Origin: Pseudomonadota bacterium
GTDB taxonomy: Bacteria; Myxococcota_A; Polyangia; JAAYKL01
Reading direction: 5' to 3'
Assembly: GCA_023229365.1 (NCBI GenBank)
Contig: JALNZK010000014.1
Span: 6,970 to 70,969 of the forward strand
DNA length: 64,000 nucleotides
This document shows positions 1 through 42,510 of this stretch, in pieces. Both the position numbers and the translations under genes were made by a program. The notes beneath the pieces were generated by a model. It ran no database searches. It had not been told where the DNA came from and saw only the letters and a list, made by a program, of their open reading frames with translations. Positions within the stretch are counted from its first letter, which is position 1. Each line of letters opens with the position of its first letter.

Positions 1-479
1 CGCGGGAATCCCATATTTACCATCATATACTGCCTGCATAAACCTAATCATTGCAAATTTGGCATTGATTTCGTCATGAGTCCAGATTACATGAAATTTT
101 TCCCTTGTCATCAATGATGCAATCTCGCCGTATATGATAGACTCGTTGATATCTATCTCTATAGATTTCATGTCTCGGATATAAGAGTCAACCGATCCTA
201 TAATTAAAAAAAGTACGATTTTGTCTTCGTGGGTTGCCAGTTTATCAGTTTCGTTGTGGATCCTAGAACGTCCATTTAGTTGTTTTGGACCAAAAATAGA
301 TTCACATAGGTCCCCTATGGTTTTACGTTCTACCAAAACTTCTGCACTCTTCGCATAGTAGTCTCCCGCATCGAGTTTTTCATGGTGAAAAGTTATTGCA
401 GGAAATAAAACACAATACTCGTCAAAAATAGATTTCTTTTCTCTGGTATCAATTATTATCTCAAGAGACATAAAATCAC

Positions 480-764
480 TTATATCTCTTCGTCTCCATA
501 TGTTCCAGTATACCAGGTTATTTCGGTTGCTTCATTCATCCAAGGCATCCACCACCCTTTATTTTTTATGGAGTCTAGCCATTTACCTAAAATATGATTT
601 CCGATGTCGCTAAAGGAGTTAAATGACGCCTCCTCTATGTTTAGTTCGCCATGTTGTTCAACAATGTAATTCGTCACTTCGGAAAACGTAACACGTTCGG
701 TATCTGAAGTAATTTTACTAATTATAGCAATGTAGATTTCATTCATATAATCGCTTCCTGTCAT
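480..764 (-). CDS. small hypothetical protein (94 aa). The track ORF 480..923 is over-extended; the probable start MTGSDY at 764 overlaps the dcd stop as ATGA.
   Basis: The ATG at 764-762 overlaps the TGA of the upstream gene. The only homology claimed is the overlap pattern. Confidence 0.4.
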   Translation of the reverse strand: MTGSDYMNEIYIAIISKITSDTERVTFSEVTNYIVEQHGELNIEEASFNSFSDIGNHILGKWLDSIKNKGWWMPWMNEATEITWYTGTYGDEEI

Positions 765-1312
765 AATTTGTTCCTGTAGTATCTGGACTTTGTTGGGCCT
801 TGTTGACCTTGATACTTTGATCCTGGTTTGTTTCCATACGGAATCTTGCAATGTTCTGTTTTGTGAAAAATTAGTTGGGCAAATGTCATTCCGGATTTTA
901 GTTTTATTGGATACATTCCGCAATTTGATATCTCAAATGTTATGGTACCGGAAAATCCGGCGTCAATCCATCCAGCAGTTTTGTGTACATCTATACCGAG
1001 TCTTGCCAAAGATGACTTCCCAGTAACTTCTGCACAGATGTTATCGGGAAGAGTTATTTTTTCTATTGATGATCCCAAGATGAAATCACCTGGATTTATT
1101 GTTATGTCTGGTGTTGCAAATGGCTTTCCGCAATTTGATATGTCTTGTTGATTGTATGGATCGATTGCGTGAAATGTCGGGCCAAATGTAATGAAACCAT
1201 CGCTCAATCTCAAATCAATAGAGTTTGGATTTACTAAGGATTCATCATATGGACTTATGGATACTAAACCGTCCGATATGTATGATTTGATCTCCCAATC
1301 CACCATTACCAT
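761..1312 (-). CDS. dcd: dCTP deaminase (dCTP deaminase/dUTPase superfamily)
   Basis: Motifs NPNSIDLRL, GKSSLARLG and GWIDAGFSG are typical of Dcd. Length 183 aa. Confidence 0.85.
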   Translation of the reverse strand: MVMVDWEIKSYISDGLVSISPYDESLVNPNSIDLRLSDGFITFGPTFHAIDPYNQQDISNCGKPFATPDITINPGDFILGSSIEKITLPDNICAEVTGKSSLARLGIDVHKTAGWIDAGFSGTITFEISNCGMYPIKLKSGMTFAQLIFHKTEHCKIPYGNKPGSKYQGQQGPTKSRYYRNKL

Positions 1313-1314
1313 GT

Positions 1315-1542
1315 TTAATTTCCATAATCCTTAAAATTAGAAAGAACAAAATCTATGTCGTCCGCGGTAATTCTTTTTCCGTTCTTTTTATCGACTATTT
1401 TTTCTGCGTCTTGTACCAGGTGTTCAACATAAGAGGTTGCCAACTTGGCAAGATGTGTTGCAGTTTCCATACCAATAAGTTTCCCGCATGCATTTTTTCC
1501 TATGCGTCTTGCAGTATATGCTGGAAATATATTATCTACCAT
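1315..1542 (-). CDS. archaeal histone-fold protein (HMf-like singlet, 75 aa)
   Basis: ARRIGKNACGKLIGMETATHLAKLATSYVEHLVQDAEKIVDKKNGKRITADDIDFV matches the archaeal histone fold, including the RxTxxxxD C-terminal element. Confidence 0.8.
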   Translation of the reverse strand: MVDNIFPAYTARRIGKNACGKLIGMETATHLAKLATSYVEHLVQDAEKIVDKKNGKRITADDIDFVLSNFKDYGN

Positions 1543-1569: not shown

Positions 1570-2259
1570 TTAATCTGCTGATGTTTTGTTGCTAATTACC
1601 GGACAGCATATAATATATGAGTCTGTATTTTTGTCTCGTATTCCAATTGCATTAGATCCGTCTTTATGCTTTATGGAAACAATCTCAACAATATTGGTTG
1701 ATATGTTTTTCTTTGATAGTTTAATCAGATAATCTATCATATGCATATCAAACAGTCCTATTTGAGTTATGAGATTATTACCGTCATATCGTATTTCTCG
1801 TATACCTACAGCAGATGCAACATCCGGGGGTATAGATAATTTACCCATAACACGATTTCTAACATATTCCTTTATGTAGGATTCAGATTGGGTATTCATG
1901 GGGCACGTACCGGTATCGTTGGTAAGTTTTCCAATCCAATCATCAGATATCTGCCATATTCGTGTAGATCCTCCAAAAGAAACATTTGTTACACTTACAA
2001 TACACCCCAAATTCTTAAGTTTGTATATCATTCCTCTTGGTAATGCACCGGATAAATAACTGGTTATGAATTTATCACAACCTACTTTGTTAAATATGGT
2101 CAATAGATTATCATATTGTCCTTTTGATAGTTCCCTCAAAATATCACCGCAATGTAAGAGGGTTTGGGACATCCTTGAATAGCCCGGCTTCCTGTGTTGA
2201 ACTACATAATCCACATATTGGATACATTGCCCAGGAGCACCGTGGTTTAATTTCAGCAT
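1570..2259 (-). CDS. hypothetical protein (229 aa). The start may be the internal Met at 2172.
   Basis: Long ORF in a gene-dense minus-strand block. No motif recognised. Confidence 0.45.
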   Translation of the reverse strand: MLKLNHGAPGQCIQYVDYVVQHRKPGYSRMSQTLLHCGDILRELSKGQYDNLLTIFNKVGCDKFITSYLSGALPRGMIYKLKNLGCIVSVTNVSFGGSTRIWQISDDWIGKLTNDTGTCPMNTQSESYIKEYVRNRVMGKLSIPPDVASAVGIREIRYDGNNLITQIGLFDMHMIDYLIKLSKKNISTNIVEIVSIKHKDGSNAIGIRDKNTDSYIICCPVISNKTSAD

Positions 2260-2854
2260 CCGGATTGTTTATTATGGCTTTCATGTCTTGTATCGCGGTT
2301 TCTACTTTTGATGTGTCTGGATAGCCATAGTCCACATACTGTTGTAGTCTTGGATTGATTACCCTGAGTTCAGTTATGTCAATATCCAGGATGTTCTTGA
2401 TGTTATATGCATAAAATTCGAGTTGACGCTTTTCTGATTTACGGTCAAACTTTTTGCTGGTTTTGTATTCTACCAGACGAAACCCACCGTAAAGTAGTGC
2501 ATCGATCCGGTCTATTGTCCCTGTGGTTTCCAGGATGTGGTTTGTAAATTCAAGCTCCGTGACATATGGAAAAAATAGTTCGTCAGAATAAAACCGGTTT
2601 ATTTCGTAATTTATAAAATATGATGCCATCCTGCGTTCTAAAATTCCAAACTCCTGTGGTATGAACTCTGTCCATCTGTCTGGAGAATATTTTAGGATGT
2701 CTACTGCGACAAAAAATTTGTCCGCGAATTCATGGAATCGAGATCCTAAAGTTAGGGCATATGATTTTTTCTGCTCTGTTTTGTCGATGTATTGCTTTTT
2801 GAACTGGAGTGGACAGAACGAATAGGATTCTATGTGAGACTTTCTAATGTACAT
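2144..2854 (-). CDS. Cas4-like PD-(D/E)XK nuclease with a C-terminal 4-Cys cluster
   Basis: N-terminal Cys (SYSFCPLQF), core GTIDRID...VEYKTSK, and C-terminal CSWAMYPICGLC. Confidence 0.8.
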   Translation of the reverse strand: MYIRKSHIESYSFCPLQFKKQYIDKTEQKKSYALTLGSRFHEFADKFFVAVDILKYSPDRWTEFIPQEFGILERRMASYFINYEINRFYSDELFFPYVTELEFTNHILETTGTIDRIDALLYGGFRLVEYKTSKKFDRKSEKRQLEFYAYNIKNILDIDITELRVINPRLQQYVDYGYPDTSKVETAIQDMKAIINNPDAEIKPRCSWAMYPICGLCSSTQEAGLFKDVPNPLTLR

Positions 2855-4917: not shown

Positions 4918-5156
4918 TTAAACCAACCCAAATCAATATCTGAGTTTCTTTCTATAGTTTTTCTGGCTTCACATCCATAATATATTTTAAGCATACATTG
5001 ATCGCATATAGGGAGTCTGATTGATGCTGTGTCTTTGTTTAAAAAGTCAACTAATACTCCATTTATTTTCCCCCCGTAATGATCTGTCCCCACTGTTTCC
5101 CCGCAAATGCCACATGTTATTGTTTCTATCATGTTACCACAATGTCTGTTGTCCAT
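4914..5156 (-). CDS. small Zn-binding protein
   Basis: CGICGE...CDQC. Confidence 0.4.
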   Translation of the reverse strand: MDNRHCGNMIETITCGICGETVGTDHYGGKINGVLVDFLNKDTASIRLPICDQCMLKIYYGCEARKTIERNSDIDLGWFK

Positions 5157-7407
5157 TTACTATATAATCCCATGTGTATCCCAATGCTTCCATATATGAT
5201 TCCATTTTATTTTTTACCAGCTTTTCTGCGTGTGTTGTCCAATCAACCTCACTTTGAATTATTGAGGTATCGAAATCTCCATCTATACAAATCTCTCTGG
5301 GCCACGAGTCACGTTTAAGGAGATAAACAAGACGTGGCTTTACAGAAGGATCAAATATGTGTTGGTATTGAACCTTTGCTACTTCTCTCCCACGATACCA
5401 CGGATCGTCATGTTCAGTATGTATTCCCTTAGGTATAGAGACATCGTATACTGATAACTTTCCGGATTTTATGTCCTTCCAGCGTTGTCTTATGAGAGCC
5501 AGTGCTTTTGGTAGATCATCTTCAATGAATAGTATGTTGAAAAATTCTGTTTGGAGATCTTTTACCGCTTTTGCCTGATCTGATCTTTTGATTTCGACTC
5601 CAACATAACTCATCTTTTTACAGAACCCGTAATCCTGATGCCACAACAACAATCCCACATATTTCTTTTTAGCTGCTTCATTACCTTTTTTTCTCATCTT
5701 GAAGAACAGTGAGTCATGTATTTTTTCGAGCTTTAACGTAAAATCTACAATGGCATTTGTGGCTATGGAGTATGTTTTAAGATCACCATTTAATATATCT
5801 TGAACTTTTAAACCCTCTTCAAGCGTATTTACAGGATTAAACGCTGCTGAGTCCGTGTCGCAATATATTACGTGATATCCAAGCGATTCTATTTTATCCC
5901 GTACTATTTTTGAGATTTCTCTGCCATAGCGAGTGACTGACGCAGCTGTTGCTTCGTTGTATAAACGGAAGCTTTTGGCTCCAAGAACTCCATAGAAGCT
6001 GTTTGCTAGATACTTTAGGACTTGTTCCTGATATTTTAGATTTATATCCTGGCTTGTTTTGTTTATGGTTCTGAGTCTGTCACGCTCTGCTACGATGTGT
6101 TTCAGGATTTTTGGAACTAATTTATCTACATCCGGGGAGATGTCATATGCCATCATAATAGTTGGATATAGGGATTTTAAGTCTACCCAGCCTACGTTTT
6201 TGTGCAGGCCAAACGGCGGGAGAATTACTGTTGCGCCTTCAAATGTACTGTCTGAATTATTTGGAAGTCGTCTTGGCATCGGTTTGATGCCAGATTGCAT
6301 GAGATATGATTCTATGATTTTGCTGTTGTATATGGTGTCTTCAAGTTTGCAGCCTGTAAAATGACGAACTGAATCAAAAAACCGAAACATCTGTGTCTTT
6401 TCTTCAATGATCATCAGGCTGGTGATATCATTTTCACAGTACTGAAGTAGGGTATCCCAGTCATGAGTAGCATACAGGTGTTTTATTTGGGCACCATAGT
6501 CTTTATATGGGAATCCGTATTCGGCCGACACTGTTTTGAGTCCGTTGTCTTCACGTTCCGACTCAGATGATTTTAGTTTTTTAAATCCGTCTAACATGTC
6601 AAAACATTGACGACCCGGAGTTCTTACGATGTATTTTCCGTTTGGCATTAAGTCGCATCGTGCGTCATTTAGCCTGCATAAAGCAGTTGTTCTCATGCCT
6701 ATGACGTTTGCCCTGCGTACGAGATATGGCAAATCAAATTGAAGACAATACCATCCGGTGTAAACATCGGGATCAATCTTTTTGATTAGTTGATAAAAAA
6801 TTTCAAACAGTTCTTTTTCCGACTTTGCAACAATATGATTGGATTTTATTCTGTGATCTATTCCATTTGTGATTATGAATTTCTTTCCGGTGTAACTGTC
6901 GCCAAATTGAATGGTTGCGACCGGATATTTTACAGTTGATGGATTTGGCATGTCCCCGGGATCATTGTCGATTTCGATATCGAAAAACAGGATTCTTGGA
7001 GGAATGTAACCGTCGTACTGCACCGATGATACTGCGCTGTTGCTCTCGATTTTATATGCTTTTTTTAGCTTTTTGTCTGCAATAAATCTCTTTTCAAACA
7101 GAATGTCGCTCTCATCTGTGAAACTAAACTGATCTCGTACTTCTGAGACCCGTCCAGGGAGGTCTGTAAATACCTTGACGACGTTTCTGCCAAAACAATC
7201 GGTTGCGGATTCTCCTCGTCTACATCCATCCAGTTGAGTAATTCTACCTGCTTCATCATATGGAACATAAAAATATGGTTCGAAGTCTTTTATCTTTGTT
7301 ACGGTTGGTTCTCTTGTGGTAGTGTCTCTTCCAAAAACATGCAGGATTGGCTTCCGATTTTTAAAATCTATTTGATATGCTACATCCTGAACAATCGAAA
7401 TAGACAT
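5134..7407 (-). CDS. polB: family B DNA polymerase with 3'-5' proofreading exonuclease
   Basis: ExoI FFDIEID, ExoII YCLQFDLPYL, ExoIII YCENDITSL, pol motif A DLKSLYPTI, motif B KILANSFYGVLG, motif C YCDTDS, and KKKYVG. Confidence 0.95.
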   Translation of the reverse strand: MSISIVQDVAYQIDFKNRKPILHVFGRDTTTREPTVTKIKDFEPYFYVPYDEAGRITQLDGCRRGESATDCFGRNVVKVFTDLPGRVSEVRDQFSFTDESDILFEKRFIADKKLKKAYKIESNSAVSSVQYDGYIPPRILFFDIEIDNDPGDMPNPSTVKYPVATIQFGDSYTGKKFIITNGIDHRIKSNHIVAKSEKELFEIFYQLIKKIDPDVYTGWYCLQFDLPYLVRRANVIGMRTTALCRLNDARCDLMPNGKYIVRTPGRQCFDMLDGFKKLKSSESEREDNGLKTVSAEYGFPYKDYGAQIKHLYATHDWDTLLQYCENDITSLMIIEEKTQMFRFFDSVRHFTGCKLEDTIYNSKIIESYLMQSGIKPMPRRLPNNSDSTFEGATVILPPFGLHKNVGWVDLKSLYPTIMMAYDISPDVDKLVPKILKHIVAERDRLRTINKTSQDINLKYQEQVLKYLANSFYGVLGAKSFRLYNEATAASVTRYGREISKIVRDKIESLGYHVIYCDTDSAAFNPVNTLEEGLKVQDILNGDLKTYSIATNAIVDFTLKLEKIHDSLFFKMRKKGNEAAKKKYVGLLLWHQDYGFCKKMSYVGVEIKRSDQAKAVKDLQTEFFNILFIEDDLPKALALIRQRWKDIKSGKLSVYDVSIPKGIHTEHDDPWYRGREVAKVQYQHIFDPSVKPRLVYLLKRDSWPREICIDGDFDTSIIQSEVDWTTHAEKLVKNKMESYMEALGYTWDYIVNGQQTLW

Positions 7408-7415
7408 GACAAATC

Positions 7416-8267
7416 CTATACAAATTCAAGAGAACTGTATGTTCCCACTTTGTTTTTGACATCTTCCCATGTAGGGTTTATCATGGGTTCGATCTCGGGA
7501 ATATCGCCAAATCTTCCACCTTTGAAGTAAAACCAGTGTTCGTTAAGCCCTGTGATTGGTTCCGGGACTTTTTTAACTTCCATAACAAGATTCAGCCAGA
7601 AATCTGTATTTTTTTGCCATTTTGGCAGATCAAATTTCAGTGGAGTAGATCCATCAAATGCCTGATGGGCTCTAAATGTAATTATGACATGCCATTTGGT
7701 GGCTAAAAGCATCCGTAGCATATCCATATACTTGCGGTTTGCCTTACCCCACTCAGTTTGCATCATCAAATCTTTGCCGGATTTATCTTTTACCTTTTTC
7801 GTCTCTATGGTTTCAAGCCAAAGACTTAGCCATTCCCAGGCATCGGTTCCAGAATCAATTACAATGAATCCGTATTTGCGATCTTCCTCTGGTAATTCTT
7901 CATTGGACAGTATCATGTCGGTTAAAACATCAATTGCCTCTTCGTATAGGGTCAGAGACTTTACCAGATCAACGGTTTTGTTCTTTTTGTCCAGATATTC
8001 CACAGCATTGAACAATCTTATTCTGTCTTGGACTTCCTGAGGCCAAGTTGATACATTTATGTGGAAATCACCTTCTGTATCTATTGCCCAGACATAACCC
8101 GGGAGATTATGACTGATAAGATATTGTGCAGACGATATGCAAAAATGAGTTTTGCCTTGTTTTGCCCTGGAATATACCGCAATTCGAATTGTTGCTTTCT
8201 GATGGCTTATAGGTTTAAAATAGTCGTCCACTGATTTTTTGGTTTTAATTGTGCTACCAAATGCCAT
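7416..8267 (-). CDS. P-loop RecA-like / AAA_24 (Sak4-like) ATPase. The track ORF extends to 8330; the probable start is MAFGST.
   Basis: Walker A SRAKQGKT, then AIDTEGDF, and Walker B-like FIVIDSGTD. Sits immediately upstream of polB. Confidence 0.55.
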   Translation of the reverse strand: MAFGSTIKTKKSVDDYFKPISHQKATIRIAVYSRAKQGKTHFCISSAQYLISHNLPGYVWAIDTEGDFHINVSTWPQEVQDRIRLFNAVEYLDKKNKTVDLVKSLTLYEEAIDVLTDMILSNEELPEEDRKYGFIVIDSGTDAWEWLSLWLETIETKKVKDKSGKDLMMQTEWGKANRKYMDMLRMLLATKWHVIITFRAHQAFDGSTPLKFDLPKWQKNTDFWLNLVMEVKKVPEPITGLNEHWFYFKGGRFGDIPEIEPMINPTWEDVKNKVGTYSSLEFV

Positions 8268-10853: not shown

Positions 10854-10997
10854 CTAATGCTTGCCATTTACTGAAATCCATCCACGACCACCACAATAAC
10901 TGCACTGAGTTATTTCGTATGGTGGGATATCTCCTATGATTTTTCCGGATCCTCTGCATTCTTTACATATCTTGCCTTTCTGTTTCTTTTTCGACAT
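10854..10997 (-). CDS. 47-aa Zn-ribbon protein (MSKKKQKGKICKECRGSG...CSYCGG)
   Basis: Two CxxC pairs. Below the track cutoff. Confidence 0.3.
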   Translation of the reverse strand: MSKKKQKGKICKECRGSGKIIGDIPPYEITQCSYCGGRGWISVNGKH

Positions 10998-11406
10998 TTC
11001 CCTTTGATATTATTTCTTTGATCAATTCAATCTTTTGGATTTTATAGTTGTGTTCATTTGTATTCCAAAGACCTATTTTGTCTAGAACACGGGAATTAGA
11101 TGAATAGAGATTGGCACATCTTCCCATCACAGTCTTTTTAATTGCTCTTTGTTTTACCTTTATGAGTTCTAATTGCAAGAGTCGTTTTAGAGATAGGGAG
11201 ACTGCCGGTTCATCTCTATTGGTACACATTACAATCTCTTTCATTGTTGCAGGAGACTTGATCAGTAGATATGCTAGCACATCTGAGTCTACCGCATTCA
11301 ATTTACATAATTGTAATGAGGTACTGATTTCATGTAGTTTTTCTATATCAGGCATAGATTTATTACCTCTCGTGTTAATATTTATTTCCCCAAACACAAA
11401 CAACAA
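10963..11406 (-). CDS. winged-helix (MarR/TrmB-like) transcription regulator
   Basis: DVLAYLLIKSPATMKEIVMCTNRDEPAVSLSLKRLLQLELIK HTH pattern. Confidence 0.5.
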   Translation of the reverse strand: MLFVFGEININTRGNKSMPDIEKLHEISTSLQLCKLNAVDSDVLAYLLIKSPATMKEIVMCTNRDEPAVSLSLKRLLQLELIKVKQRAIKKTVMGRCANLYSSNSRVLDKIGLWNTNEHNYKIQKIELIKEIISKGNVEKETERQDM

Positions 11407-11475
11407 GCAAGATCGGAATTGTCTTTTTCCTTTTCTTCTTGTTTAGAATCGATTGTTTGAGGAGTTGCGTCTGTC

Positions 11476-11823
11476 TTATTTTTCCGCGGTTATTCTAAGC
11501 AAGGCATTGTGTGCTGTTATAACGCATATCATATGTTTTTCCTCATAGCATTCGTCATTCCTGTAATAACAAATGGTATCTCCCTGGGATAGGTGCATAT
11601 TAATGTGATCTACGTCTACAACTTTTCCTCTATCCAGATATGACTGCAATCCAAGTTTTTCTTTTGGCTCGTAATACTTGCAAAATGTTTGTGCTTGCGT
11701 CCAGGGGTTATTAACTATCGTTGCAAAAATACAGTGGTTTAATTCTTTGGTCGCTGCACATATGTTTGATATGTGCACTGCGCCCGGGTCAGGTTTAACG
11801 TAATGTTTGCATTGTTCTGTCAT
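11476..11823 (-). CDS. hypothetical protein (MTEQ...)
   Basis: ORF. Confidence 0.4.
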   Translation of the reverse strand: MTEQCKHYVKPDPGAVHISNICAATKELNHCIFATIVNNPWTQAQTFCKYYEPKEKLGLQSYLDRGKVVDVDHINMHLSQGDTICYYRNDECYEEKHMICVITAHNALLRITAEK

Positions 11824-15873: not shown

Positions 15874-15876
15874 GTT

Positions 15877-16155
15877 TTAGTCCTCATAGTATAGTCGAAC
15901 AAAGTTTAATGTGGTGTTGCCGGGGTGTTCTCCTTCCTTTATCCACAGTCGATACTTTGGCCTCCCGTAATATTGGATGTGTTGTTTTAGTAGTCGCTGA
16001 ACCATTTTGGATATATAGTTCATTGAGTAGTCTTTTCCGTTCGATGCCTTCATCCAAGAGTTTATGCCTGTTCTTACGTAAAGGATTTCATTGCCTTTTT
16101 TCTTGATTACTATGTGTTTTACACTTGCAACTTCGATTTGTTTTGTTAGTTTCAT
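15877..16155 (-). CDS. hypothetical basic protein
   Basis: ORF. Confidence 0.4.
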   Translation of the reverse strand: MKLTKQIEVASVKHIVIKKKGNEILYVRTGINSWMKASNGKDYSMNYISKMVQRLLKQHIQYYGRPKYRLWIKEGEHPGNTTLNFVRLYYED

Positions 16156-16272
16156 AAGAAATCACACCGGAATATTAGTTTTAGATTTGTTGATCGTAAT
16201 GTCGGGTTTCCATTTATCATGCTATATTTTCCTCATTGGGTTAATTTGTATGTAATTTTTTGCCTTATTGTA

Positions 16273-16638
16273 TCATTCTTCGAACTTTGTTGAGTGAGGA
16301 CAATGTTCTGGGAATGGACATATCCCGGCTTTAATTTTTTCCTGGTCGTCTGTAGATAGTTCAGTGTCGTTCTGTAAGATGCATTCTGTTAATTCACATG
16401 CCATTTTTTCTCCGAATTGCTCATTTATGTCTGATATGATAGATCCTAATATGAGGTCATATGACTGTTTTATTAGGTTTGCTGTTTTTAATTTGTCTAT
16501 ACTATGGTTTATGTATGGAGATACGTCAACCATCATGGCAAATGTGTCAAATTTACCAGTTTTTGTTCTATACCAGAATGCTGTCTCATATGAGAATGGC
16601 GCTGTCTGGATTATTGTGCTGAAGCTTGTGGATGTCAT
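16273..16638 (-). CDS. hypothetical protein
   Basis: ORF. Confidence 0.4.
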   Translation of the reverse strand: MTSTSFSTIIQTAPFSYETAFWYRTKTGKFDTFAMMVDVSPYINHSIDKLKTANLIKQSYDLILGSIISDINEQFGEKMACELTECILQNDTELSTDDQEKIKAGICPFPEHCPHSTKFEE

Positions 16639-17159: not shown

Positions 17160-18050
17160 TGTGGTTCCTCGGTTAGAATTCTGTTTATTATCTTATTTAT
17201 AGTATTGGTTTCGTTAAGATATGTCGATTGTAGGATTTGAACCTACTTCTGTGGCTTGAGACCACCGTCTTTACCAATCTAATAAAATACAAATGATAGA
17301 TCTATATTTCCCACGGGCATGATTTTATTAGACCAGACCAAATCGACAATGGGAATTGTTAACATTCTTTGAAATGGCACCAGTGAGATTCGCACTCACG
17401 TAGCCCTACGGCGGCAGATTTTGAGTTTGTTGTTCTCTGGTAACAGGCTGACCCGTCGTGGGTCGATTTAAGCTGACTTTACAGACACCCTCATATGAAG
17501 CAATTAGTCGCTACACGCTGCTGGTTCTTCATAGTTTCTGATACCAGAGATAACCAGAATCGGGGATCGAACCCGAACGGCGCTACATGTGCCAACCCAC
17601 TTCCGGTTTTTGTTATAACTCATCCTGATGATCGGATGTAGAGGGTTTGAACCTCCATTGATCTCATATCAAACATCCGATAGGCTGATTGTTTTTATAG
17701 AGGTATCAACCTATGAATTTAACCTCTTTTTGATTCAAACGTCTTTAAATCTCATCCATTTCTGGATAACCGAATAGTGGAATTTAACCACAATTCAATC
17801 AGACTTATGGAGGTCTTACCCCTGATTTGACCCAGGGATAAGATTATTGTTATTTGCGACAGGAAGTTGAGTAAGTTTCCTGTATGAGTTATATTTGCGA
17901 AGGGTATCAGTCTGATGAGGATAAAATGTTTGTACTAAGTAGGTGCATTCGATGGCTTGTTTCCGTGTCTTGTGGTCCTCCTGTAGTTGTTTGGCCTCAC
18001 CAAGATGTGATTATTGGATCACCGGCCAAAAAAGTTTGAGTTAATAAGGT
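17160..18050. other. non-coding tract rich in tRNA-like fragments and hairpins
   Basis: No ORF of 60 aa or more on either strand. GC is higher than the surroundings. T-arm-like GTAGGATTTGAACCTAC (17230-17246), T-arm plus acceptor strand ACCAGAA-TCGGGGATCGAACCCGA (17553-17576), and a hairpin GACCCGTCGTGGGTC (17452-17466). Confidence 0.5.
17632..17680 (-). ncRNA. tRNA-like mini-element: 7-bp acceptor stem (CGGATGT/ACATCCG), T-arm GGAGGTTCAAACCCTCT and a D-like hairpin, but no anticodon arm
   Basis: Complementarity read directly. Not a canonical tRNA. Confidence 0.3.
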
Positions 18051-18340
18051 TAATAAGCTCTGCTTATTATGTAATTCGACTGAGCCACAACTTCTGATGT
18101 GTTTGTTGTCAGGTTGTTATAGATGGTCAGGGTTGCAGCAAGAGATGCCTGTTGTCCTGTAACATAAAGTACTGATTGGTTTGTGATGAACTCACCATAG
18201 TAAAGTGGTGTCGCCCCACCTGCAATAACCAGGGACTTTGATGTTACGTTTATGGTCTGATTGGTATCTGCCATTGCGATACTAGATAGCATCAGTAATG
18301 TTGCTATCAGAAGAACTATGTAAAGCGCTTTTGTCTCCAT
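18050..18340 (-). CDS. secreted protein with signal peptide (probable start METKALYIVLLIATLLMLSSIAMA)
   Basis: Hydrophobic signal, then a Thr/Asn-rich mature part. Confidence 0.45.
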   Translation of the reverse strand: METKALYIVLLIATLLMLSSIAMADTNQTINVTSKSLVIAGGATPLYYGEFITNQSVLYVTGQQASLAATLTIYNNLTTNTSEVVAQSNYIISRAY

Positions 18341-18365
18341 AATATGTGGTTGGTGTTCCCTGGTA

Positions 18366-18545
18366 TTATTTTTGTTGGATGATAATACCACATTTTGGAT
18401 ATTTTGCTGGGATTTTTCCTGGCGGTCCGAGGTATATGTGATAAAATTTGCAGGAGTATCCGGATTTCTGTCCGTTTATCAGGTACCCGCAATGGTTGCA
18501 TGTTGGTGGGGTTTCTATGTCATCTTTAAATAGTTTTTTTGCCAT
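18366..18545 (-). CDS. 59-aa Zn-ribbon protein (MAKKLFKDD...CNHCG...CKFYH...CG)
   Basis: Below the track cutoff. Preceded by another 48-aa Cys-rich ORF (about 18546-18692). Confidence 0.3.
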   Translation of the reverse strand: MAKKLFKDDIETPPTCNHCGYLINGQKSGYSCKFYHIYLGPPGKIPAKYPKCGIIIQQK

Positions 18546-18903
18546 GTTACCACTTCTTTTGTGGGCATGATATCATTTGGTACCGGAGGTCTCCGGATAT
18601 GTTGCATTTATACATTCCGTTTTTTACTGAACTTTCTGTGCAGTCTCTACATGAGTTTATTTGTTTGAATTCGTTGTTGTTTCTGTCTGTCATATATCAT
18701 TCCTCAATTTATGCTTAATTGTTTCCATAATATTAGCATCTCACGTTGTGATTCTCTGTCTAAATTTCCGATTTCATACATTATGGTTGTTAATTCTGGT
18801 GTAAAAAATATGCTGTGGACCTTTATCTGGTGGTATATCACACCGGAGAATGAGCGAGTTGTTAATTTAAGTGTCATATCATCACTATGTTATCCCAATA
18901 TTG

Positions 18904-20097: not shown

Positions 20098-20877
20098 TCA
20101 TGAGAATTGCTTCCTGCCTTGTATAAATCTGGATAATTCTTCAATGTCTCGTTTGTAATAGATGTGGGGTGAATTGCTTATGGTTTCAAGCCACCCGGAT
20201 TCAATTTCATGGGATAACATTGTATTAATGTCATTCACTAGTTTCTGCTGTAGATATGCTAGTGCTATGGCGTTCATCCCCCAGGCAGATAGCATGTCAT
20301 TGGAGCGGAATATGGAAATTAAGTTTAGATGATTTGTTCTATCGATTAGTGCCTGGATTAGTTGGAGACATGGGGGTTCAGATGATATTATGTCAATCTC
20401 TGGAGACCAAGTGATTGCTATGGCTCTTCTACTGTTTGGGGTGTTGATTAGTCGAGTTATTATGCTGAGTTTGAGCTGATTTATTCCCCCTAGATTTCCA
20501 TTGCCAATTTGCCCATCTTCAGTTGGATAATCGCACAATCTGTTACCATAGGTGTATGTTGCGTCAGTGTTGTCGTTTTTTCGCGTTGTAATTGAATACA
20601 TAGATGATTTGTATTGATCTATGAATTTGTCGCCAAACATAGAGTATTGGGATTTCATTGGGGACTGCATTGGATTTTTTATATGAACACAGAGAGGTTG
20701 TTCCAGGTCCCATATGTGTTCGTTGTCTTCGGTTAGTTTATCAATGCCGAGACATGTGTCATGGATAAGATTTACGATGGAATTATGTGCCTCTCCAATT
20801 GTTGATTTTGATAGTAGGATCATGGGATCATTTATTCTCCTCAATTTTGTTGTAATAGTCGACATGTAGTCTAACAA
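20098..20877 (-). CDS. thyA: thymidylate synthase (ThyA) family enzyme. The catalytic Cys sits in PPCL (not PCH) and WSP replaces WNP.
   Basis: NSRRAIAITWSPE, SEPPCLQLIQ, RSNDMLSAWGMNAIALAYL and SPHIYY align with ThyA core motifs. Confidence 0.75.
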   Translation of the reverse strand: MLDYMSTITTKLRRINDPMILLSKSTIGEAHNSIVNLIHDTCLGIDKLTEDNEHIWDLEQPLCVHIKNPMQSPMKSQYSMFGDKFIDQYKSSMYSITTRKNDNTDATYTYGNRLCDYPTEDGQIGNGNLGGINQLKLSIITRLINTPNSRRAIAITWSPEIDIISSEPPCLQLIQALIDRTNHLNLISIFRSNDMLSAWGMNAIALAYLQQKLVNDINTMLSHEIESGWLETISNSPHIYYKRDIEELSRFIQGRKQFS

Positions 20878-22487: not shown

Positions 22488-23454
22488 ATATCATTATATG
22501 ACAATTTATCATGATGTAGCGGGCATCCTTGTCGTTCTAGCATTTCGACAAGAATCTGATTTAGGTTGTTTGATATGGTGGATGATATCTTGTGGTCCTT
22601 TAGCAGTTCTATGGCCGTTGCCAACTTCAATATAAGTGTTATGTTGTTCATTGTTTTTCCTGTATTTTAACAGTAGATAATGGAAAAATGGGCTTGGGTT
22701 ACTCCCAGGTTAACTATTGGTTTGACCCAATTTGTTAACAATAATAGAATGGTTGTAGAATTGTTCTACAGGGTTGCAGCATTCTGTTTTATAGAGTGCT
22801 GTTTTGTTCTTGATTAATGCCCGGATTAATGTCACACTAATCAGCTTTACCTACCCAGTTACAGCCGCATATAATATGCTGTTAATGCTGTTGCCTGCAT
22901 CATTCCTGGACAGATGTTATTCTGTCGTCATTTGGCAGGGCCGGGTGTGGTTGCCTTGCCTCACGGAACTCATCGGTATAATTACATTTGATGATTTGAC
23001 TATTAAGTGTTTCGGTTTAATATGCAGAAAAAGTAGGTGTTTTGTGGATTTGGTGGAGATATGAGGTGTTGTGTTAATGTTGTTTGATTAACTGCACAGA
23101 CGGTGGGGAGTTAAATTGTAGTTTGTAATTGCAGGTGAGGTGTCCTGGATAACAACAGGGGCGATTTCTGATTTTTTCTGCGCAGATAAAGGCGTTGTGG
23201 AATGGAATGCAGGAAAAACAATGGGGGATCATTGGGGATATAATTGGGTGATATTACATGTTATGTTATTCATTGGATGGTTCGTTGTTTGCATTTTTTA
23301 TTTAGATATGGTCTTGTAATGTTTGCATAGAAGGGCTGCAAATTCCCAGGCGCTTGGATCTGGAGATGAGGTGCCGTTGTCTGATAACATGGCAAATGGA
23401 CATCCTGAGTTGATTTTGGTGCAGATATGTCCAGTGTGTTGATAGTTGTGGTGT

Positions 23455-23724
23455 TTACATGTGGTGTATTGTGTTGTCATTGTTTTTCCTTGGGTTTGTT
23501 GTTAGGCTGCCTGAGTTTAGTAGTCTGGTGAGGTATGAAATTACGTTGTCTTCTATACCGGTGTAGACTGTTGTGGTATTGTTTATAGATAGGGTTACGG
23601 TGTTATGTCCGGTGTGGTTAAGACTGGAAGATAGAATGGATTCTATGATGGGTAGAGAGGTCGGATGTATTGGATATGTCCTGTCTTGGTATGTTAGAGA
23701 TATGTTGGGCGTAATTGTTGTCAT
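23455..23724 (-). CDS. hypothetical Thr/Ser-rich protein
   Basis: ORF. Confidence 0.35.
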   Translation of the reverse strand: MTTITPNISLTYQDRTYPIHPTSLPIIESILSSSLNHTGHNTVTLSINNTTTVYTGIEDNVISYLTRLLNSGSLTTNPRKNNDNTIHHM

Positions 23725-25270: not shown

Positions 25271-25299
25271 ATGATTACCTCAGGTCGTGGAATGGATTA

Positions 25300-27100
25300 A
25301 ATCATCTATTTCTTTTTTCCTAGCAGCATATCTATCCATAGCCACAGGACTCCCTGCACATATGAAATAGTGTATGCAGGATATGTTACGGCATTTTCCA
25401 TCATGAATATATGATGAACATGGCTCATACATATGCTAATGATTGCGTTCTGTTGTATTTAATGCTGTGGTTTTCGGTAGGAGATGACGGATTTGGTGAA
25501 TTGAATGGTGAATTATGAAATGCGGTGGGTGATAAGTTTTGGGGCAATTTTGAGGTTATTGTGAGATGAGTTGATGCGCTGTTTAAATATGGTTAGGGAA
25601 TTGTGGCAAGTGGCTTGCCATTAGGTATTTAATTGTTTTGAATGGTGTTATATATGTATTAGGTTCAATCCTTACAACAACACTGATAAAATAGTAATAA
25701 GATTTGGTATAATTAATTCTCTTTTCAACTCAAAAATGATAATGTAATGATGTTCTGTATAATTTTTTATTTGGTTTTTACCTTATTGGGTTAATTGTCA
25801 TGATAGATCATGTGGGATATGATTGGGGGATAGTTTGGGCTTTGTTTCCGGTTAATGTTTTTTGGTGGGATATACTGGGTTAATTTTTTGATTGCGGCTT
25901 AATTATGCCTGATGTATTATATGGTAACACTGCAATATAAGTAAAATGAAGGAATCGAAAAAAGGGTTATTGGCAAAAGGAGAGCATACCTTTATCCGAT
26001 TGCGCCTCATTACTGCCAGGGATTCAAAATCGTTAGCCAAAACGTTAATATCAGTTTCCTTCTATTCTATCCTGACCGATAGGTTTATGTTGTGGTAATT
26101 TTGTCCGGAAATGAGGGTTAAGTGGGCGGCGAAAACACAAATATAACATGTAGTGGTACAAAAGTTGAGATTTAGTTTAAAAAATATGAAAAAAAGTTTA
26201 ACACTAATTTTTTTTTAGTGTGATTTTGTTATACTTTTGAATCGGGGTTCAATTTGGCTTTAATATTAATACTTTTATTTAAATATGGTTTATTTAATGA
26301 TTTATGGAGCGCACACGCATCGTGATGAAGCCGGATATCGATTTATCTACGTTGGTTTTGTAATATAGTTTGTGATGGATAAAATAGGCGCGAGTCTGGC
26401 GTGGTGTTGCGCGTGTGGAAAATGGTTGGATAGATGCTAACTCAATGTTTTTTGAGTTAAGTTAAGTTTTGTTTTCGCTTATTTGATACCGCACTTTTTT
26501 GAGAAAATTTCAATTTTTGTAGTATTTATATGTTTGGGATGATTTCGGAAAATGTAGAATCGTGATAGATTTGTGCTACTAATTCAATTTTATATTCTAC
26601 TGATGATTTAAATCTGGATTGGTGAAATAAGTGAGATACGGATGCAACTAGTTGCAACTGGCAGAATGGGCTTGGATTGAAATAAGGACAGAATGGGCGT
26701 ATTTTCCAGTGGAAATAGTGGGAGTGTGACGTTAATTATAGGTCGGAATGATGAATAAGCAGTGTATATGCCGTTTCTTGACTTGTCCGGACTGGTTGAC
26801 AACTATTTTGGGGCTGATTTGGGCTTGGTTTTTATTTTTGATTTAAAGCCGCGCTAATGTAAAACATGGCTGGATTGGTTTAACTTATAAAGCATGGCTA
26901 TTGCTGGGGTAGATTGAAGAATGCGGCTTTAGCGCGTTAGCTATCGCTATAATAATTGCGCAAACTGGTTTTTGATGAATCAGGTGGTGTTAAGTATATA
27001 TACTTAACAAAATTGCAGTAACACTTATACCAATTGGTATTAGTGTAGTGTGTTAATAATTTGTGTATTTTTTTTACTGTCGTATTATTTGATTAAAAAA
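25300..27100. promoter_or_regulatory. 1.8-kb non-coding region and candidate replication origin or control region
   Basis: No ORFs. G+T skew on the plus strand. AT-rich core about 26160-26310. Perfect palindromes GTTAAGTATATATACTTAAC (about 26993-27012), ATACCAATTGGTAT (about 27028-27041) and GCAACTAGTTGC (about 26644-26655). Direct repeat GGTGAATTGAATGGTGAATT (about 25496). Confidence 0.4.
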
Positions 27101-27103
27101 TTG

Positions 27104-27310
27104 TTATCTGAAGGATCTTGTCCACTGGTATAACCTAGTGAGTGATGTGTTTACCTCCACAATCTTTTTATGTATTGAAATTAGGCTGTCAATACGACTC
27201 CTATTCATTTTTCCGTCACAATTACACTTTATTTGTGATATAATTGTGCTCGACTTCTCAAACTCCTGTTCGATCTCCTCAAACAGGTAGTCCTCTATGA
27301 TTGTCCTCAT
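27104..27310 (-). CDS. small hypothetical protein
   Basis: ATGA overlap with the upstream gene. Confidence 0.4.
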   Translation of the reverse strand: MRTIIEDYLFEEIEQEFEKSSTIISQIKCNCDGKMNRSRIDSLISIHKKIVEVNTSLTRLYQWTRSFR

Positions 27311-29196: not shown

Positions 29197-29250
29197 TTCT
29201 TTTCTTCTCCAGTGGATAGGATTGATTACCTATCCAGATCCGGGAAAAAT
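29197..29250 (-). promoter_or_regulatory. promoter/leader unit with inverted repeat TGGATAGG/CCTATCCA before CTGGAGAAGAAAAGAA-ATG
   Basis: Read directly. Confidence 0.5.
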
Positions 29251-29260
29251 AGAAGGAGGA

Positions 29261-29617: not shown

Positions 29618-29867
29618 TTCTTTTCTCCATACCCTAGATGCTTACTCTAGGGATGGAATCCTCTATCCGGATTGAACCGACTTCTAAAAAGTAGAGGGTT
29701 ATTCTCTCATCAGATATCGATTCATTTCAGTGTCTTCAGTTCCATCATCATACTGGACCATTGCCCAGTAATGCTCCCAATCCTTGCCATATCTAGATCT
29801 TATAACTTTACCATGAAGACCGCATTTAGGAGAGAGTGTGTATTGGTTTACAACTCTCGTTCCAATC

Positions 29868-30311: not shown

Positions 30312-30365
30312 TTCTTTTCCTCTAGGGATAACAGAATGTTCTGTTACCCAATCTAGGGAATTAAT
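30312..30365 (-). promoter_or_regulatory. promoter/leader unit with inverted repeat GGGTAACAGAA/TTCTGTTATCC
   Basis: Read directly. Confidence 0.5.
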
Positions 30366-30377
30366 GTCTTAAAAAAG

Positions 30378-30803
30378 TTAGATTTCATTCCTAGCACTTT
30401 GGATCAATGCTTCTACATTGATCGATAATGCTATGGTCTTAATTTTCTCACAATCTTTTCGGATTGTTTTCATAGTCTTGACAGACAGTCTTGTGTTACC
30501 GAACGCTTCAGTCTTTGTGAGTAGATTCTCACAATATCTGATGTCATTGACTAGACTGTCTATTGTAATAACTCCAAGGAGATCACCACTGTTTTTCCTA
30601 GTTGTTCTCTGTCTAGATACAACTGATAATACGTGATTCTCCAGGGTATCACACAGTGCAATAGTTGTTTCTGCCAGATCTAATCCAACATTGATCTGAT
30701 TTTCTAGATCGATGTGGTATTCAGTCAGAAATTCTACTGCCTTTGCAAGGTCGTCCTTTGAGACCTTAACTGAATTGAGTTCTGCTGCCATTTCTTTCTC
30801 CAT
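30378..30803 (-). CDS. hypothetical helical protein
   Basis: ORF with private leader. Confidence 0.45.
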   Translation of the reverse strand: MEKEMAAELNSVKVSKDDLAKAVEFLTEYHIDLENQINVGLDLAETTIALCDTLENHVLSVVSRQRTTRKNSGDLLGVITIDSLVNDIRYCENLLTKTEAFGNTRLSVKTMKTIRKDCEKIKTIALSINVEALIQSARNEI

Positions 30804-30886
30804 CCAAGTTACTGCCTGGTGCAGGCATATCAGTCATACATGGGCTGACATGCTATCTGCCCGTTAAAAAATTAGAGTGATAAGGT

Positions 30887-31470: not shown

Positions 31471-31517
31471 TTTCTTCTCCAGGGACATCAGTCTAGCATG
31501 CTGATGTCCTATCTGTG

Positions 31518-31805
31518 TTAAAAATGGGTTGATTTAACCCATTTGCCTTCTATTACAAAGTCTAATGAGTGCTGTTCTACTATCTTCTCTATAGTAAGAT
31601 GGATGCCATTGTATGACACCACATCTGCAAGCTTAAGCCTTCTTGAGGCTTCCTTGATTGTTACAGGCTTAACAAGCACTATATCGTTGAGCTTCTTTGA
31701 AATGCTGTATTCTACATACTGTTGCTTCACAGCAAGTTTGCTATGAAACTTGACTGCTGCTTTCTTTGAGGATACAATCATATACCCCTTCAAGTTTCCA
31801 TTCAT
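31518..31805 (-). CDS. hypothetical protein (95 aa)
   Basis: ORF with private leader. Confidence 0.45.
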   Translation of the reverse strand: MNGNLKGYMIVSSKKAAVKFHSKLAVKQQYVEYSISKKLNDIVLVKPVTIKEASRRLKLADVVSYNGIHLTIEKIVEQHSLDFVIEGKWVKSTHF

Positions 31806-31866
31806 TTCTTTCTTTTCTCCAGGGATAGCAGGTTGTCATCTGCTACCCTATCTGGGTTAAAAAGGA
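31806..31866 (-). promoter_or_regulatory. promoter/leader unit: TTTTTAA box, CCAGATAG, inverted repeat GGGTAGCAG/CTGCTATCCC, then CTGGAGAAAAGAAAGAA-ATG
   Basis: Read directly. One of at least 9 homologous units (others near 28036-28090, 28365-28410, 29197-29250, 29618-29665, 30312-30365, 30804-30885, 31471-31525, 32089-32145). Confidence 0.5.
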
Positions 31867-32088: not shown

Positions 32089-32744
32089 TTATTTTTCTCC
32101 AGGCATGACAGATTGATTCTGCCATGCTATCTGGGAAACGATGAGAGTTAGGTGTGTACTAACTCCCTGACTATTTTACCCACAGTGCGATACTGTAGGT
32201 AAACGTCTAGCCAGGTGTTACCCTGACAGTATTCTACCTTCTTGCCACCGTTAAACATCTCTATGGTTACTCTCCACACAGAGGTGCTACATGATGCTAA
32301 GTAAGCATCTAAAACCAACTGCTTCATTTAATCAGCCCAATACATCCCACCCATAATGCTATGTTCATCAATACCATGTTGAGTGCAAATAACCACTCAA
32401 TCTTAAGATTGTATTCTCGTCTTGTCATGTTGTTCTCCAGTGATACTCTGGCTATATGAATGGAAGAAAAAAAGCATCTATATAGCCTCATAATATCACA
32501 AATCATCCTCACCTTCTACCCGGATAAAAAAAAATTTCACTAAATCTACCAATTATTATAAAAAACAAAACATATATATCGTTATTATATATTGCAGTCG
32601 AGTTTATCACCTATCTTACCCACATTATGTTATGGGATGTAAAAAGCCGAAAAGGCCGAAGAAATAATTTCTTGATATTATCACTATTTTTGCCGGGGTT
32701 TCGTTACGCAATCATTATAATGCTGGACATCCATACATTCGTGT

Positions 32745-41484: not shown

Positions 41485-42510
41485 ATGACAGATAGATTGG
41501 TTGCAATTGCAATAAATTCTACTTCTGATTATGGAGTAACCACCATCGGAACTGATATCGCCGGAACTTATTATAAGTTCAGGGGTAGTGCTGATACTGA
41601 TGGGGTGAACAGGACTCCTATATCAGAAGAGAACATGGATACTATGGCACCGGGTGAAATAGACGGTGGTGGATATGCTGTTACCGGTAATATTGATGGA
41701 ACACTTAGGACTGATCCTGGGACTCTTAATCTGATTAGTTGTTTCATGGGGGTTCAAGCTAGTGGAACAACCGCCGGTACTTATTATATGACGAATATCC
41801 CGCTTACCACATGCACGTTGCTTGTGTATGATGAGCAGGCAAATGATAATGCCGGGGTTGCCACATATTATACCGGTGTCGGGATGACGTCCATGGAAAT
41901 AAGCTGTAAGGTAGAAGATTACGCCAAGCTTAAGTTTGCATGGATTGGAAGACGGGCTATAACAGTTCATGGGGCATTATCGGCTGCACCAACGGAACCA
42001 ACCTGGACAAGTTTTCCGATGTCAGTATATTATAATGCAGTGTTGACATTTGGAGGAACTGTCTTACAGACCAAAGGAATTACTGTTAAGGCTGAGAGAA
42101 AATATGCTCAGGATTACAGGTTCTTGGGGTCACAGTTTTTGCAGGGCTTGTATATTAACGGTATGAGCAACCTTTCAGGAACTATGGATATTGGAGCTGG
42201 TGAATGGGATCTCGTAAGTCAGATCATTAATGGGTCCTCAATTGGCGGTGCTCTCGATTCAGGTCATACGGAGTTTGATGGTAGTCTGGCAAACACGATG
42301 GCCTCTGGAGAATTGAAGTTGAAGTTCTATAGGCCGGCTGGTAGCGGTGCGACAAATGGACTGCTTTTGACTGTTACGATAGCTAAATGTGTTGTTACTG
42401 ATTTTAACCGGAGTGTCCAGAACCGGAATATGTGGGAAAAGACCGTGAATTGGAAAGCTGCACTACCTACAAGTGCTGATTTCAGTATTACTGTGGCAGC
42501 AGTAACATAA
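41485..42510 (+). CDS. major tail (tube) protein
   Basis: 341 aa, Gly/Thr-rich, directly before the chaperone pair and the TMP. Confidence 0.5.
   Translation: MTDRLVAIAINSTSDYGVTTIGTDIAGTYYKFRGSADTDGVNRTPISEENMDTMAPGEIDGGGYAVTGNIDGTLRTDPGTLNLISCFMGVQASGTTAGTYYMTNIPLTTCTLLVYDEQANDNAGVATYYTGVGMTSMEISCKVEDYAKLKFAWIGRRAITVHGALSAAPTEPTWTSFPMSVYYNAVLTFGGTVLQTKGITVKAERKYAQDYRFLGSQFLQGLYINGMSNLSGTMDIGAGEWDLVSQIINGSSIGGALDSGHTEFDGSLANTMASGELKLKFYRPAGSGATNGLLLTVTIAKCVVTDFNRSVQNRNMWEKTVNWKAALPTSADFSITVAAVT

Follow-up and report, generated by a model that had tools for sequence, protein, structure and literature searches.

In this work we analysed a stretch of 64,000 nucleotides of contig JALNZK010000014.1 (the window in what follows, always meaning that whole stretch), which by its gene content belongs to the genome of a tailed virus, and found that this virus encodes a small histone. 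The protein, of 75 amino acids (AA), is a histone fold of archaeal HMf architecture, with helices and loops as long as those of HMf and no indels, and its open reading frame (ORF) is a conserved protein-coding gene under purifying selection. Judging from its residues at the polymerisation positions it is not a canonical hypernucleosome histone, and we see an even chance that it acts as a DNA-binding, non-polymerising dimer, made together with the replication genes, which would alter the chromatinisation of viral or host DNA. The gene is the following:

1315–1542, minus strand: viral histone-fold gene, singlet, ATG start, 75 AA, sequence MVDNIFPAYTARRIGKNACGKLIGMETATHLAKLATSYVEHLVQDAEKIVDKKNGKRITADDIDFVLSNFKDYGN

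The 75-AA protein is recorded in the NCBI, JGI, ENA and Logan assemblies, under the name ‘histone H3/H4’ at JGI and as a hypothetical protein at NCBI. An exhaustive phmmer search of 1.84 billion representatives recovered two true homologues beyond the query, P0003 (73 AA, 39% identity) and P0006 (111 AA, 38%), and a profile search enlarged the family to 14 clusters, mostly of 73 AA and 38–47% identical to the query. A word-index search with the protein matched nothing but itself, PHROGs and NCBIfam hold no match for it, and scans of IMG/VR and GTDB genomes with the family alignment gave pattern matches and zero confirmed relatives. The N-terminus of the window protein agrees with those of its homologues. 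The position of the gene is conserved in four viral contigs (34–77 kb) distinct in sequence, with a Cas4-like nuclease gene (and a ribonucleotide reductase gene in some) on one side and the genes for dCTP deaminase, ERCC4 nuclease and a 388-AA protein on the other, and the ratio of non-synonymous to synonymous substitution rates (dN/dS) between two relatives of the histone gene is 0.13–0.15, for a dS of about 1.2.

Other candidates were rejected. The phmmer matches P0002, P0004, P0005 and P0007 are long proteins, the three inspected being internally repetitive, and they were discarded as noise. The best tblastn match of the histone among the deposited phage genomes (INPHARED), in MT836034.1 (E = 0.2), falls inside a 347-AA ORF in high-GC DNA that resembles, by eye, the delta subunit of bacterial DNA polymerase III, and it was set aside as chance. 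This GenBank entry (‘Bacteriophage sp.’, human faeces) itself looks, from ORF translations read by eye (ComEC-like, holA-like and glutaminyl-tRNA synthetase-like), like high-GC bacterial chromosomal DNA and not phage.

The histone-fold identity proposed by the first-pass annotation, made from the letters of the window, is borne out by profile and structure comparisons. All six weak Pfam matches of the 75-AA protein are to histone-fold families, the best being CBFD_NFYB_HMF (E = 0.0016). A comparison with this family (PF00808) had been proposed as a check, and the match is present below the gathering score (19.1 bits for a cutoff of 21.4), PF00808 being listed at E ≤ 0.1 for only 4 of the 14 family members. 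A single-sequence phmmer search of the PDB has HMfA as its best match (E = 0.13), and when the family profile is used instead, histone-fold proteins make up almost the whole list of 30 PDB matches, HmvA, HPhA and HMfA coming first (E about 0.01). Profile–profile comparison is supportive: hhalign aligns the family with an HMfA/HMfB/HPhA/HmvA alignment at 94.5% probability (E = 8e-8) over 67 columns with zero gaps; of these reference sequences, HMfA 7–68, HPhA 18–66 and HmvA 3–61 match database printouts. An AlphaFold2 model built on the family alignment has a mean predicted local distance difference test score (pLDDT) of 83.2 and places alpha 1 at residues 8–19, loop 1 (L1) at 20–24, alpha 2 at 25–52, loop 2 (L2) at 53–59 and alpha 3 at 60–69. 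The best 50 Foldseek matches of this model in the PDB are all histone folds (probability 1.00, template modelling score 0.70–0.83), and it superposes on HPhA at 1.2 Å over 63 columns and on HMfB at 1.4 Å with 26% identity. As alpha 2 has 28 residues and alpha 3 has 10, the geometry is the ‘nucleosomal’ one of HMf and not the alpha 3-truncated one seen in bacterial histones and in the ‘phage histones’ described so far. The protein is a singlet, as first described, and neither of two histone profiles finds a second histone-fold ORF in the window. One homologue departs from this plan: P0006, from a Logan contig of 997 bp, shares Lys52 and the ‘NGKxIT’ loop 2 with the window protein and has a modelled extra C-terminal helix (residues 82–110, ~29 residues, pLDDT about 80–89), which recalls DNA-bridging archaeal histones, so that the family is not functionally uniform.

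In the gapless hhalign alignment residue n of the window protein corresponds to residue n − 3 of HMfB. The window protein keeps P7 (P4 in HMfB), R13 (R10, a minor-groove arginine), K16 (K13) and D62 (D59), and R12, G15, K16, K21, G24, A35, V43, I58, D62 and V66 are invariant across the family. The dimer core A24/L28/L32/I39/A43 of HMfB becomes T27/L31/A35/L42/A46, four of the five positions being kept. The positions that differ are listed here:

HMfB G16: C19 in the window protein; T in relatives (T19 in 13 of the 14 members)
HMfB R19: L22 in the window protein; K22 in most relatives
HMfB L46: I49 in the window protein; Y in relatives
HMfB H49: K52 in the window protein; E in 11 of the 14 members, D in one, K in two
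HMfB R52: G55 in the window protein; R in 12 of the 14 members
HMfB T54: R57 in the window protein; Q in relatives
HMfB L62: F65 in the window protein; F in relatives

Published requirements for a hypernucleosome are an intact L46/H49/D59/L62 interface between dimers, Gly16 and a set of stacking pairs (Henneman et al., 2018; PMC6136690). The interface reads I49, K52, D62 and F65 in the window protein and Y49, E52, D62 and F65 in the family consensus, so neither has it intact, and Gly16 is replaced by C19. Of the two minor-groove arginines (R10 and R19), R13 is present and the equivalent of R19 is L22; the Arg–Asp (RD) clamp R52–D59 is lost in the window protein (G55, D62) and present as R55–D62 in 12 of the 14 relatives. 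By sequence mapping alone, the stacking pair K30–E61 becomes K33–D64, which is compatible, while E34–R65 and R48–D14 become S37–S68 and D51–N17, which are not. The L1 arginine and the Arg–Asp clamp, whose Arg and Asp lie seven residues apart, have been called a universal histone signature in a 2026 survey (PMC13260811), and both signature arginines are missing from the window protein (Leu22 in L1, Gly55 in the clamp). The canonical L1 and alpha 3 residues announced by the first-pass annotation are therefore not borne out: only D62 and the hydrophobic pattern of alpha 3 are canonical, and the two arginines are missing. The segment RITADDIDFV (residues 57–66), given for L1 and alpha 3, is in fact the L2/alpha 3 junction, with R57 at the position of HMfB T54 and its R and T two positions off the canonical register. 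An alternative register, R57-x-T59...D64, which would restore the RxT...D motif, was rejected on the gapless alignment of the protein to its own family and to HMfA and on the modelled position of alpha 3 (60–69). As for the roles first suggested as possible, packaging of viral DNA or remodelling of host chromatin, the substitutions at HMfB positions 16, 19, 49 and 52 argue against canonical packaging of the hypernucleosome type and fit a non-polymerising or interfering role better.

Histones coat the DNA of most archaea, and an incoming virus genome is therefore expected to be wrapped by the histones of its host. To our knowledge, how archaeal viruses handle this wrapping is essentially unstudied. 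In the model that we favour, the host would be a methanogen (see below), a kind of cell that has canonical polymerising histones, and the viral protein, with four of the five HMfB core positions kept, would form handshake dimers and bind double-stranded DNA with the beginning of helix 1 (R12, R13 and K16), loop 1 (K21) and loop 2 (K56 and R57); the conserved basic residues R12, R13, K16 and K21 sit on DNA-facing elements. It would not build the canonical endless hypernucleosome, because G16 is changed to C (T in relatives), H49 to K (E or D in 12 of the 14 members) and L46 and L62 to I (Y) and F. Since it is made alongside the replication enzymes, it most likely acts as a histone that does not polymerise or that terminates chains. 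By occupying or capping DNA, it would change how host histones wrap viral, or host, DNA, and viral DNA would thereby stay accessible for replication and packaging. A viral histone that has retained the fold and a large part of its DNA-facing surface, with changes at the positions needed for polymerisation, is a testable candidate for viral control of archaeal chromatin. Were it only a generic DNA-binding accessory protein, its interest would be modest, as one more host-type chromatin gene picked up by viruses.

A more specific version of this model, which we put forward tentatively and hold to be doubtful, is that the viral protein resembles the capstone histones, which stop the extension of oligomers and whose marker is a residue 49 that is either acidic or hydrophobic (Stevens et al., 2020; PMC7776873). 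A capstone-like viral histone would heterodimerise with host histones or cap their polymers, halting hypernucleosome growth on viral DNA or loosening host chromatin; if true, archaea would have their first described case of a viral counter-chromatin mechanism. The marker is present in the family, position 49 being acidic in 12 of the 14 members, and the capstone-like pattern of substitutions merits testing.

Several points weigh against the model of a non-polymerising DNA-binding dimer. Residue mapping is the source of all three elements of the model: the formation of dimers, the binding of DNA and the absence of polymerisation. At position 49 the window protein itself carries Lys, which is not acidic, and this residue (K52) could pair with D62 across the dimer–dimer interface. 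The loss of the L1 and RD-clamp arginines means that DNA binding could be weak or unusual. Finally, more distant viruses of the same polymerase clade have no histone gene, which is thus accessory and not essential to the replication module.

The immediate neighbours of the histone gene and the rest of the replication module are as follows:

1–471, minus strand: ERCC4/Hef-Xpf-like nuclease, N-terminal part, clipped by the window start (221 AA in the full contig)
761–1312, minus strand: dCTP deaminase (Pfam DCD, E = 3e-39; TIGR02274, 170 bits for a cutoff of 92.8)
1570–2172, minus strand: 200-AA protein without assigned function, directly upstream of the histone gene with a 27-nt spacer
2144–2854, minus strand: Cas4-like PD-(D/E)XK nuclease (PDDEXK_1, E = 1.9e-15; Cas_Cas4, E = 3.6e-9), syntenic in relatives
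5134–7407, minus strand: family B DNA polymerase (PolB), with Pfam DNA_pol_B and exonuclease domains, marker of the virus clade
7416–8267, minus strand: AAA_24 ATPase of the replication module (PF13479, E = 4.6e-11), syntenic in relatives

The histone gene lies where it was first located, 2 nt upstream of the dCTP deaminase gene, with which it is probably co-transcribed, and 3.6 kb downstream of the PolB gene, all three on the same strand, in a tightly packed block of same-strand replication and nucleotide-metabolism genes. The ERCC4 nuclease is recognised by PF02732 at 11072–11737 of the full-contig locus L001; its best NCBIfam matches are the Hef nuclease (E = 8e-15) and archaeal Xpf (E = 3e-7), both below threshold, and the gene is kept in relatives. 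The 200-AA protein has no Pfam match and is not conserved in the related loci, where tblastn found no match to it. At ENA the source contig is 76,328 bp long, in a circular permutation with respect to the window; the histone gene is therefore in the middle of the genome, and viral genes continue for at least 10 kb past the window start. This position and the synteny in related viral contigs confirm that the gene belongs to the replication module of a tailed virus, as first claimed, and not to flanking host DNA.

PolB defines a broad clade of 30–83 kb contigs, and the histone is carried by those relatives whose PolB is at least 55% identical. In relatives with 32–42% identical PolB, a set that includes 47 IMG/VR contigs and loci retaining the order AAA_24–PolB–Cas4–ERCC4–388 AA, neither histone profile finds a histone within 10 kb of PolB at E values up to 1; the gene is an accessory acquisition of one subclade. 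As to its donor, the exhaustive phmmer search gave no cellular histone at E = 0.001 or better. With the viral family profile (hmmbuild), two chromosomal histones of Methanomicrobiales reach 31.7 and 30.5 bits, and PDB histones of other orders reach 17.6–20.1 bits with a separate profile of the same alignment. These two Methanomicrobiales histones, recovered by chance (an example is MADLPIAAVVRIAKKNGAERVGSDAAAALVVKAEAYIAELTKEANRLAQHAGRKTIKAEDVELAVKSA, locus L058), keep G16, R19, H49, R52, T54 and D59, and pairwise identity with the window protein is 23%. Their higher profile score, the sole pointer to a donor clade, is a hint towards Methanomicrobiales.

The remaining features that identify the element and its host are these:

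10963–11355, minus strand: small helix–turn–helix (HTH) regulator of archaeal type (sub-threshold best matches MreA, Lrs14 and Sta1; TrmB weak)
20098–20865, minus strand: thymidylate synthase (ThyA) of methanogen type (TIGR03283 thy_syn_methano equivalog, 198.4 bits for a cutoff of 174.55)
34102–35646, plus strand: terminase large subunit (TerL; phrog_17415, E = 8e-12), which marks the element as a tailed virus
35977–37461, plus strand: probable portal protein (phrog_3753, E = 0.0076, weak), in the canonical position after TerL
41485–42510, plus strand: tail tube protein (PF18906 Phage_tube_2, E = 1.3e-12; phrog_290, E = 7e-14)

By these genes the element is a tailed virus (Caudoviricetes) genome of about 76 kb. 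The plus-strand half of the window carries, besides the terminase, portal and tail tube genes, a long run of tail genes, with the structural genes at 34–63 kb; no major capsid protein was recognised by sequence in the genome, and no tRNA or Rfam family was found. None of the 50,697 deposited phage genomes in INPHARED is a close relative: neither the tail tube protein nor the putative capsid protein finds a match there, PolB is at most ~25% identical, to haloarchaeal tailed viruses, and TerL matches only jumbo phages at ~21% identity, which is uninformative on the host.

It is unlikely, in our opinion, that the protein is a chromatin or packaging histone that compacts the viral genome in replication centres or in the capsid by nucleosome- or hypernucleosome-like wrapping. 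It does have the fold, the helix lengths and the collinearity of a wrapping histone, and K52 and D62 could substitute for the H49–D59 contact; furthermore, in the archaeal tailed virus HFTV1 ordered inner DNA layers led the authors to suggest histone-like proteins in capsids (PMC12494034). However, the gene sits in the replication block and not among the plus-strand structural genes, positions 16, 19, 49 and 52 depart from the published hypernucleosome requirements, and position 49 carries the acidic capstone marker in 12 of the 14 relatives. In addition, tailed-virus capsids normally pack DNA without histones.

A role as gene-specific regulator, in which the dimer would act like NF-Y or other histone-fold transcription factors to time viral or host transcription, seems to us quite unlikely. 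The loss of the universal L1 and L2 arginines in the window protein would suit such a role, low-abundance, non-compacting archaeal histones with regulatory roles are described in PMC10128011, and the best Foldseek E-values are those of the NF-YB/NF-YC and TAF histone folds. Nevertheless, NF-Y outranks HMf by E-value only, the root-mean-square deviation and the identity being better for HPhA and HMfB, and no NF-YA-like partner, extra sequence-reading domain or second histone-fold partner was found.

The reading as a non-polymerising chromatin histone also depends on the host, which is very probably an archaeon, a methanogen, and probably one of the Methanomicrobiales or a relative. An archaeal host, which the first-pass annotation had assumed, is now favoured by ThyA, the Hef/Xpf-like nuclease, the archaeal-type HTH regulator and the affinity of PolB. 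A methanogen is indicated because ThyA scores above the NCBIfam cutoff of TIGR03283, which we take to model the thymidylate synthase type of methanogens, because of the Hef/Xpf-like nuclease, and because PolB is closest to PolB of Methanomicrobiales and Archaeoglobi: on one scale of phmmer bits, chromosomal PolB of Methanomicrobiales and of an Archaeoglobi metagenome-assembled genome (MAG) scores 239–305, that of haloarchaea about 205–212 and bacterial Pol II 120–146. The methanogen-type ThyA and the dCTP deaminase, with the ribonucleotide reductase of relatives, make up a nucleotide-supply set that would be adapted to a methanogen host. The samples of traceable origin come from landfill and from hospital or wastewater effluent, habitats of such methanogens. 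The virus represents an additional lineage of probable methanogen viruses, found in landfill and wastewater, none of whose relatives has been cultured. Shine–Dalgarno usage gives no host signal, since genes of both domains are commonly preceded by GGAG-type sites.

Some observations speak against this host. NCBI places the 76 kb viral genome (proteins MCK9459902–MCK9459946) in a ‘Proteobacteria bacterium’ MAG, and related contigs are binned to MAGs of Saccharibacteria, Paceibacterota, Babeliales and ‘Proteobacteria’ and to one Methanospirillum, labels that conflict with one another; the viral contigs in the bacterial MAGs are probably mis-binned. The genome also encodes RadC, DUF2786 and DUF2637, mostly bacterial-type domains, and the host assignment draws on gene content and PolB affinity, not on CRISPR spacers or proviruses. 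The same MAG labels, those of candidate phyla radiation (CPR) and Babeliales bins included, and the same three domains are what favours a bacteriophage, whose histone would be a bacterial-virus histone-fold protein unrelated to archaeal chromatin; to these may be added the TerL matches to jumbo phages and several near-consensus sigma-70-like sites. We nevertheless consider a bacteriophage very unlikely. The methanogen-type ThyA exceeds a curated cutoff and is accompanied by the Hef/Xpf-like nuclease and archaeal HTH families, and the similarity of PolB to its Halobacteriota counterparts is about double that to bacterial Pol II. No peptidoglycan-hydrolase (endolysin-type) domain is present in the Pfam matches, which span most but not all ORFs, and scans for sigma-70 promoters and terminators gave counts not above those of shuffles (68 versus 54.7 ± 8.6 and 13 versus 9.4 ± 3.2, respectively). 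Binning of low-GC viral contigs is presumably unreliable, and full-length alpha 3 ‘nucleosomal’ histones have been reported only from archaea (PMC11390915).

Least probable of all, and very doubtful to us, is a replisome accessory factor that would, like Dpb3–Dpb4 of eukaryotic Pol epsilon, bind the duplex behind PolB as a dimer and aid processivity or hand-off, since the synteny with PolB, AAA_24 and nucleases in all four sequence-distinct histone-bearing contigs and the weak sequence and fold matches to Dpb4 and Dpb3–Dpb4 (6wjv_4, E = 1.1; 5y26/5y27) are set against Dpb4 matches no better than those to other histone folds and against relatives with 32–42% identical PolB that have the same module without the histone gene.

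Other features of the genome were observed. A single ORF of 3330 AA (43303–53295, plus strand) occupies the tape-measure position, after the tail tube gene and a pair of overlapping chaperone-like ORFs. No PDB sequence matches it, and its sole Pfam match, to a 3'–5' exonuclease at residues 55–242, is sub-threshold (E = 0.0076). A 99-bp tandem repeat (58864–59115, plus strand; 2.5 copies, 72% matches) inside a tail-region gene of 318 AA (58207–59163) forms an in-frame 33-AA repeat, of a type often seen in fibre or receptor-binding proteins. Gene-poor stretches of 0.5–2 kb interrupt the otherwise dense genome at 25271–27306, 17160–18598, 22652–23572 and 15874–16378. The first of these, the one checked in detail, contains only ORFs under about 70 AA, and the second has a tRNA-like T-arm, GTAGGTTCAAATCCTAC, on the minus strand, ARAGORN and Rfam having found nothing in that stretch.

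Between 29197 and 32147 (minus strand), two-tier hairpins precede small early genes. The seven units (29197–29260, 29618–29700, 30312–30377, 30792–30886, 31471–31517, 31782–31866 and 32089–32147) have conserved flanks CC(C/U)(A/G)G...CU(A/G)GGAG that pair with each other, followed by a 3-nt bulge and an inner stem of 8–10 bp with unrelated sequences. Their 3' arm and the GGAG ribosome-binding site overlap, folding z-scores are −2.3 to −5.1 in six of the seven units and −1.4 in the seventh, and the motif YWGGAGAARWRA occurs seven times for 0.36 expected; these hairpins may be a translational or RNA-processing control element. The close relatives at loci L003 and L006–L009 have inteins with LAGLIDADG endonucleases in PolB and ribonucleotide reductase, HNH/AP2 homing endonucleases, and a dGTP_diPhyd_N (MazZ-like) domain protein, none of which was seen in the window.

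Compared with known histones, the window protein is closest in build to the HMf-type histones (HMfA/HMfB, HPhA, Methanomicrobiales), with which it shares a single fold, the same length, a gapless alignment of 67 residues and a superposition at 1.2–1.4 Å; it differs from them in being virus-encoded, with 23–27% identity and the changes G16 to C, R19 to L, H49 to K, R52 to G and T54 to R. The Methanobacteriales capstones (Msp_0383 and Msm_1260; PMC7776873) have, like it, a full fold, with a disrupted dimer–dimer interface that would be predicted for the viral protein too, and their acidic residue 49 is shared by 12 of the 14 viral members, whereas the window protein has Lys there; moreover, the capstones are cellular paralogues by vertical descent, and the viral family is a separate lineage. 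Among viral structures in BFVD the nearest are the histones of giant viruses (Marseilleviridae, Medusavirus), likewise virus-encoded histone folds, but these are eukaryote-like H2A/H2B/H3/H4 proteins, often fused doublets, whose nucleosomes are packaged in virions, in contrast with a lone HMf-like singlet of 75 AA. The ‘phage histones’ or viral tail-to-tail histones (VTTH) share a histone fold encoded in tailed-virus genomes (Schwab et al., 2024, PMC11390915; VTTH of Liu et al.), but have an alpha 3 of 3–4 residues, an alpha 2 shorter by 4–5 residues and a C-terminal tetramerisation helix, unlike the window protein, whose alpha 3 has 10 and alpha 2 has 28 residues and which has no extension, a C-terminal helix being found only in P0006.

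The first-pass annotation had called histones of archaeal tailed viruses rare. This is fair, and a 2022 review of viral histones makes no mention of prokaryotic viruses, but archaeal-like histones have already been described in Caudoviricetes, among them the ‘Hmf-like viral histones’ (MFVH) with predicted hosts in Methanobacteriota (Liu et al., bioRxiv 10.1101/2024.12.06.627149). Like these, the window protein is an archaeal-type histone of a tailed prokaryotic virus with a predicted Hmf-like structure. Compared by description, the MFVH set was drawn from IMG/VR with HMfA/B hidden Markov models at E below 1e-5, whereas the family of the window protein has no confirmed relative in IMG/VR and reaches E ~1e-3 against HMf-type profiles. 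Since archaeal-like histones in tailed viruses were thus reported in a 2024 preprint, the present gene is a new and very divergent case of something known.

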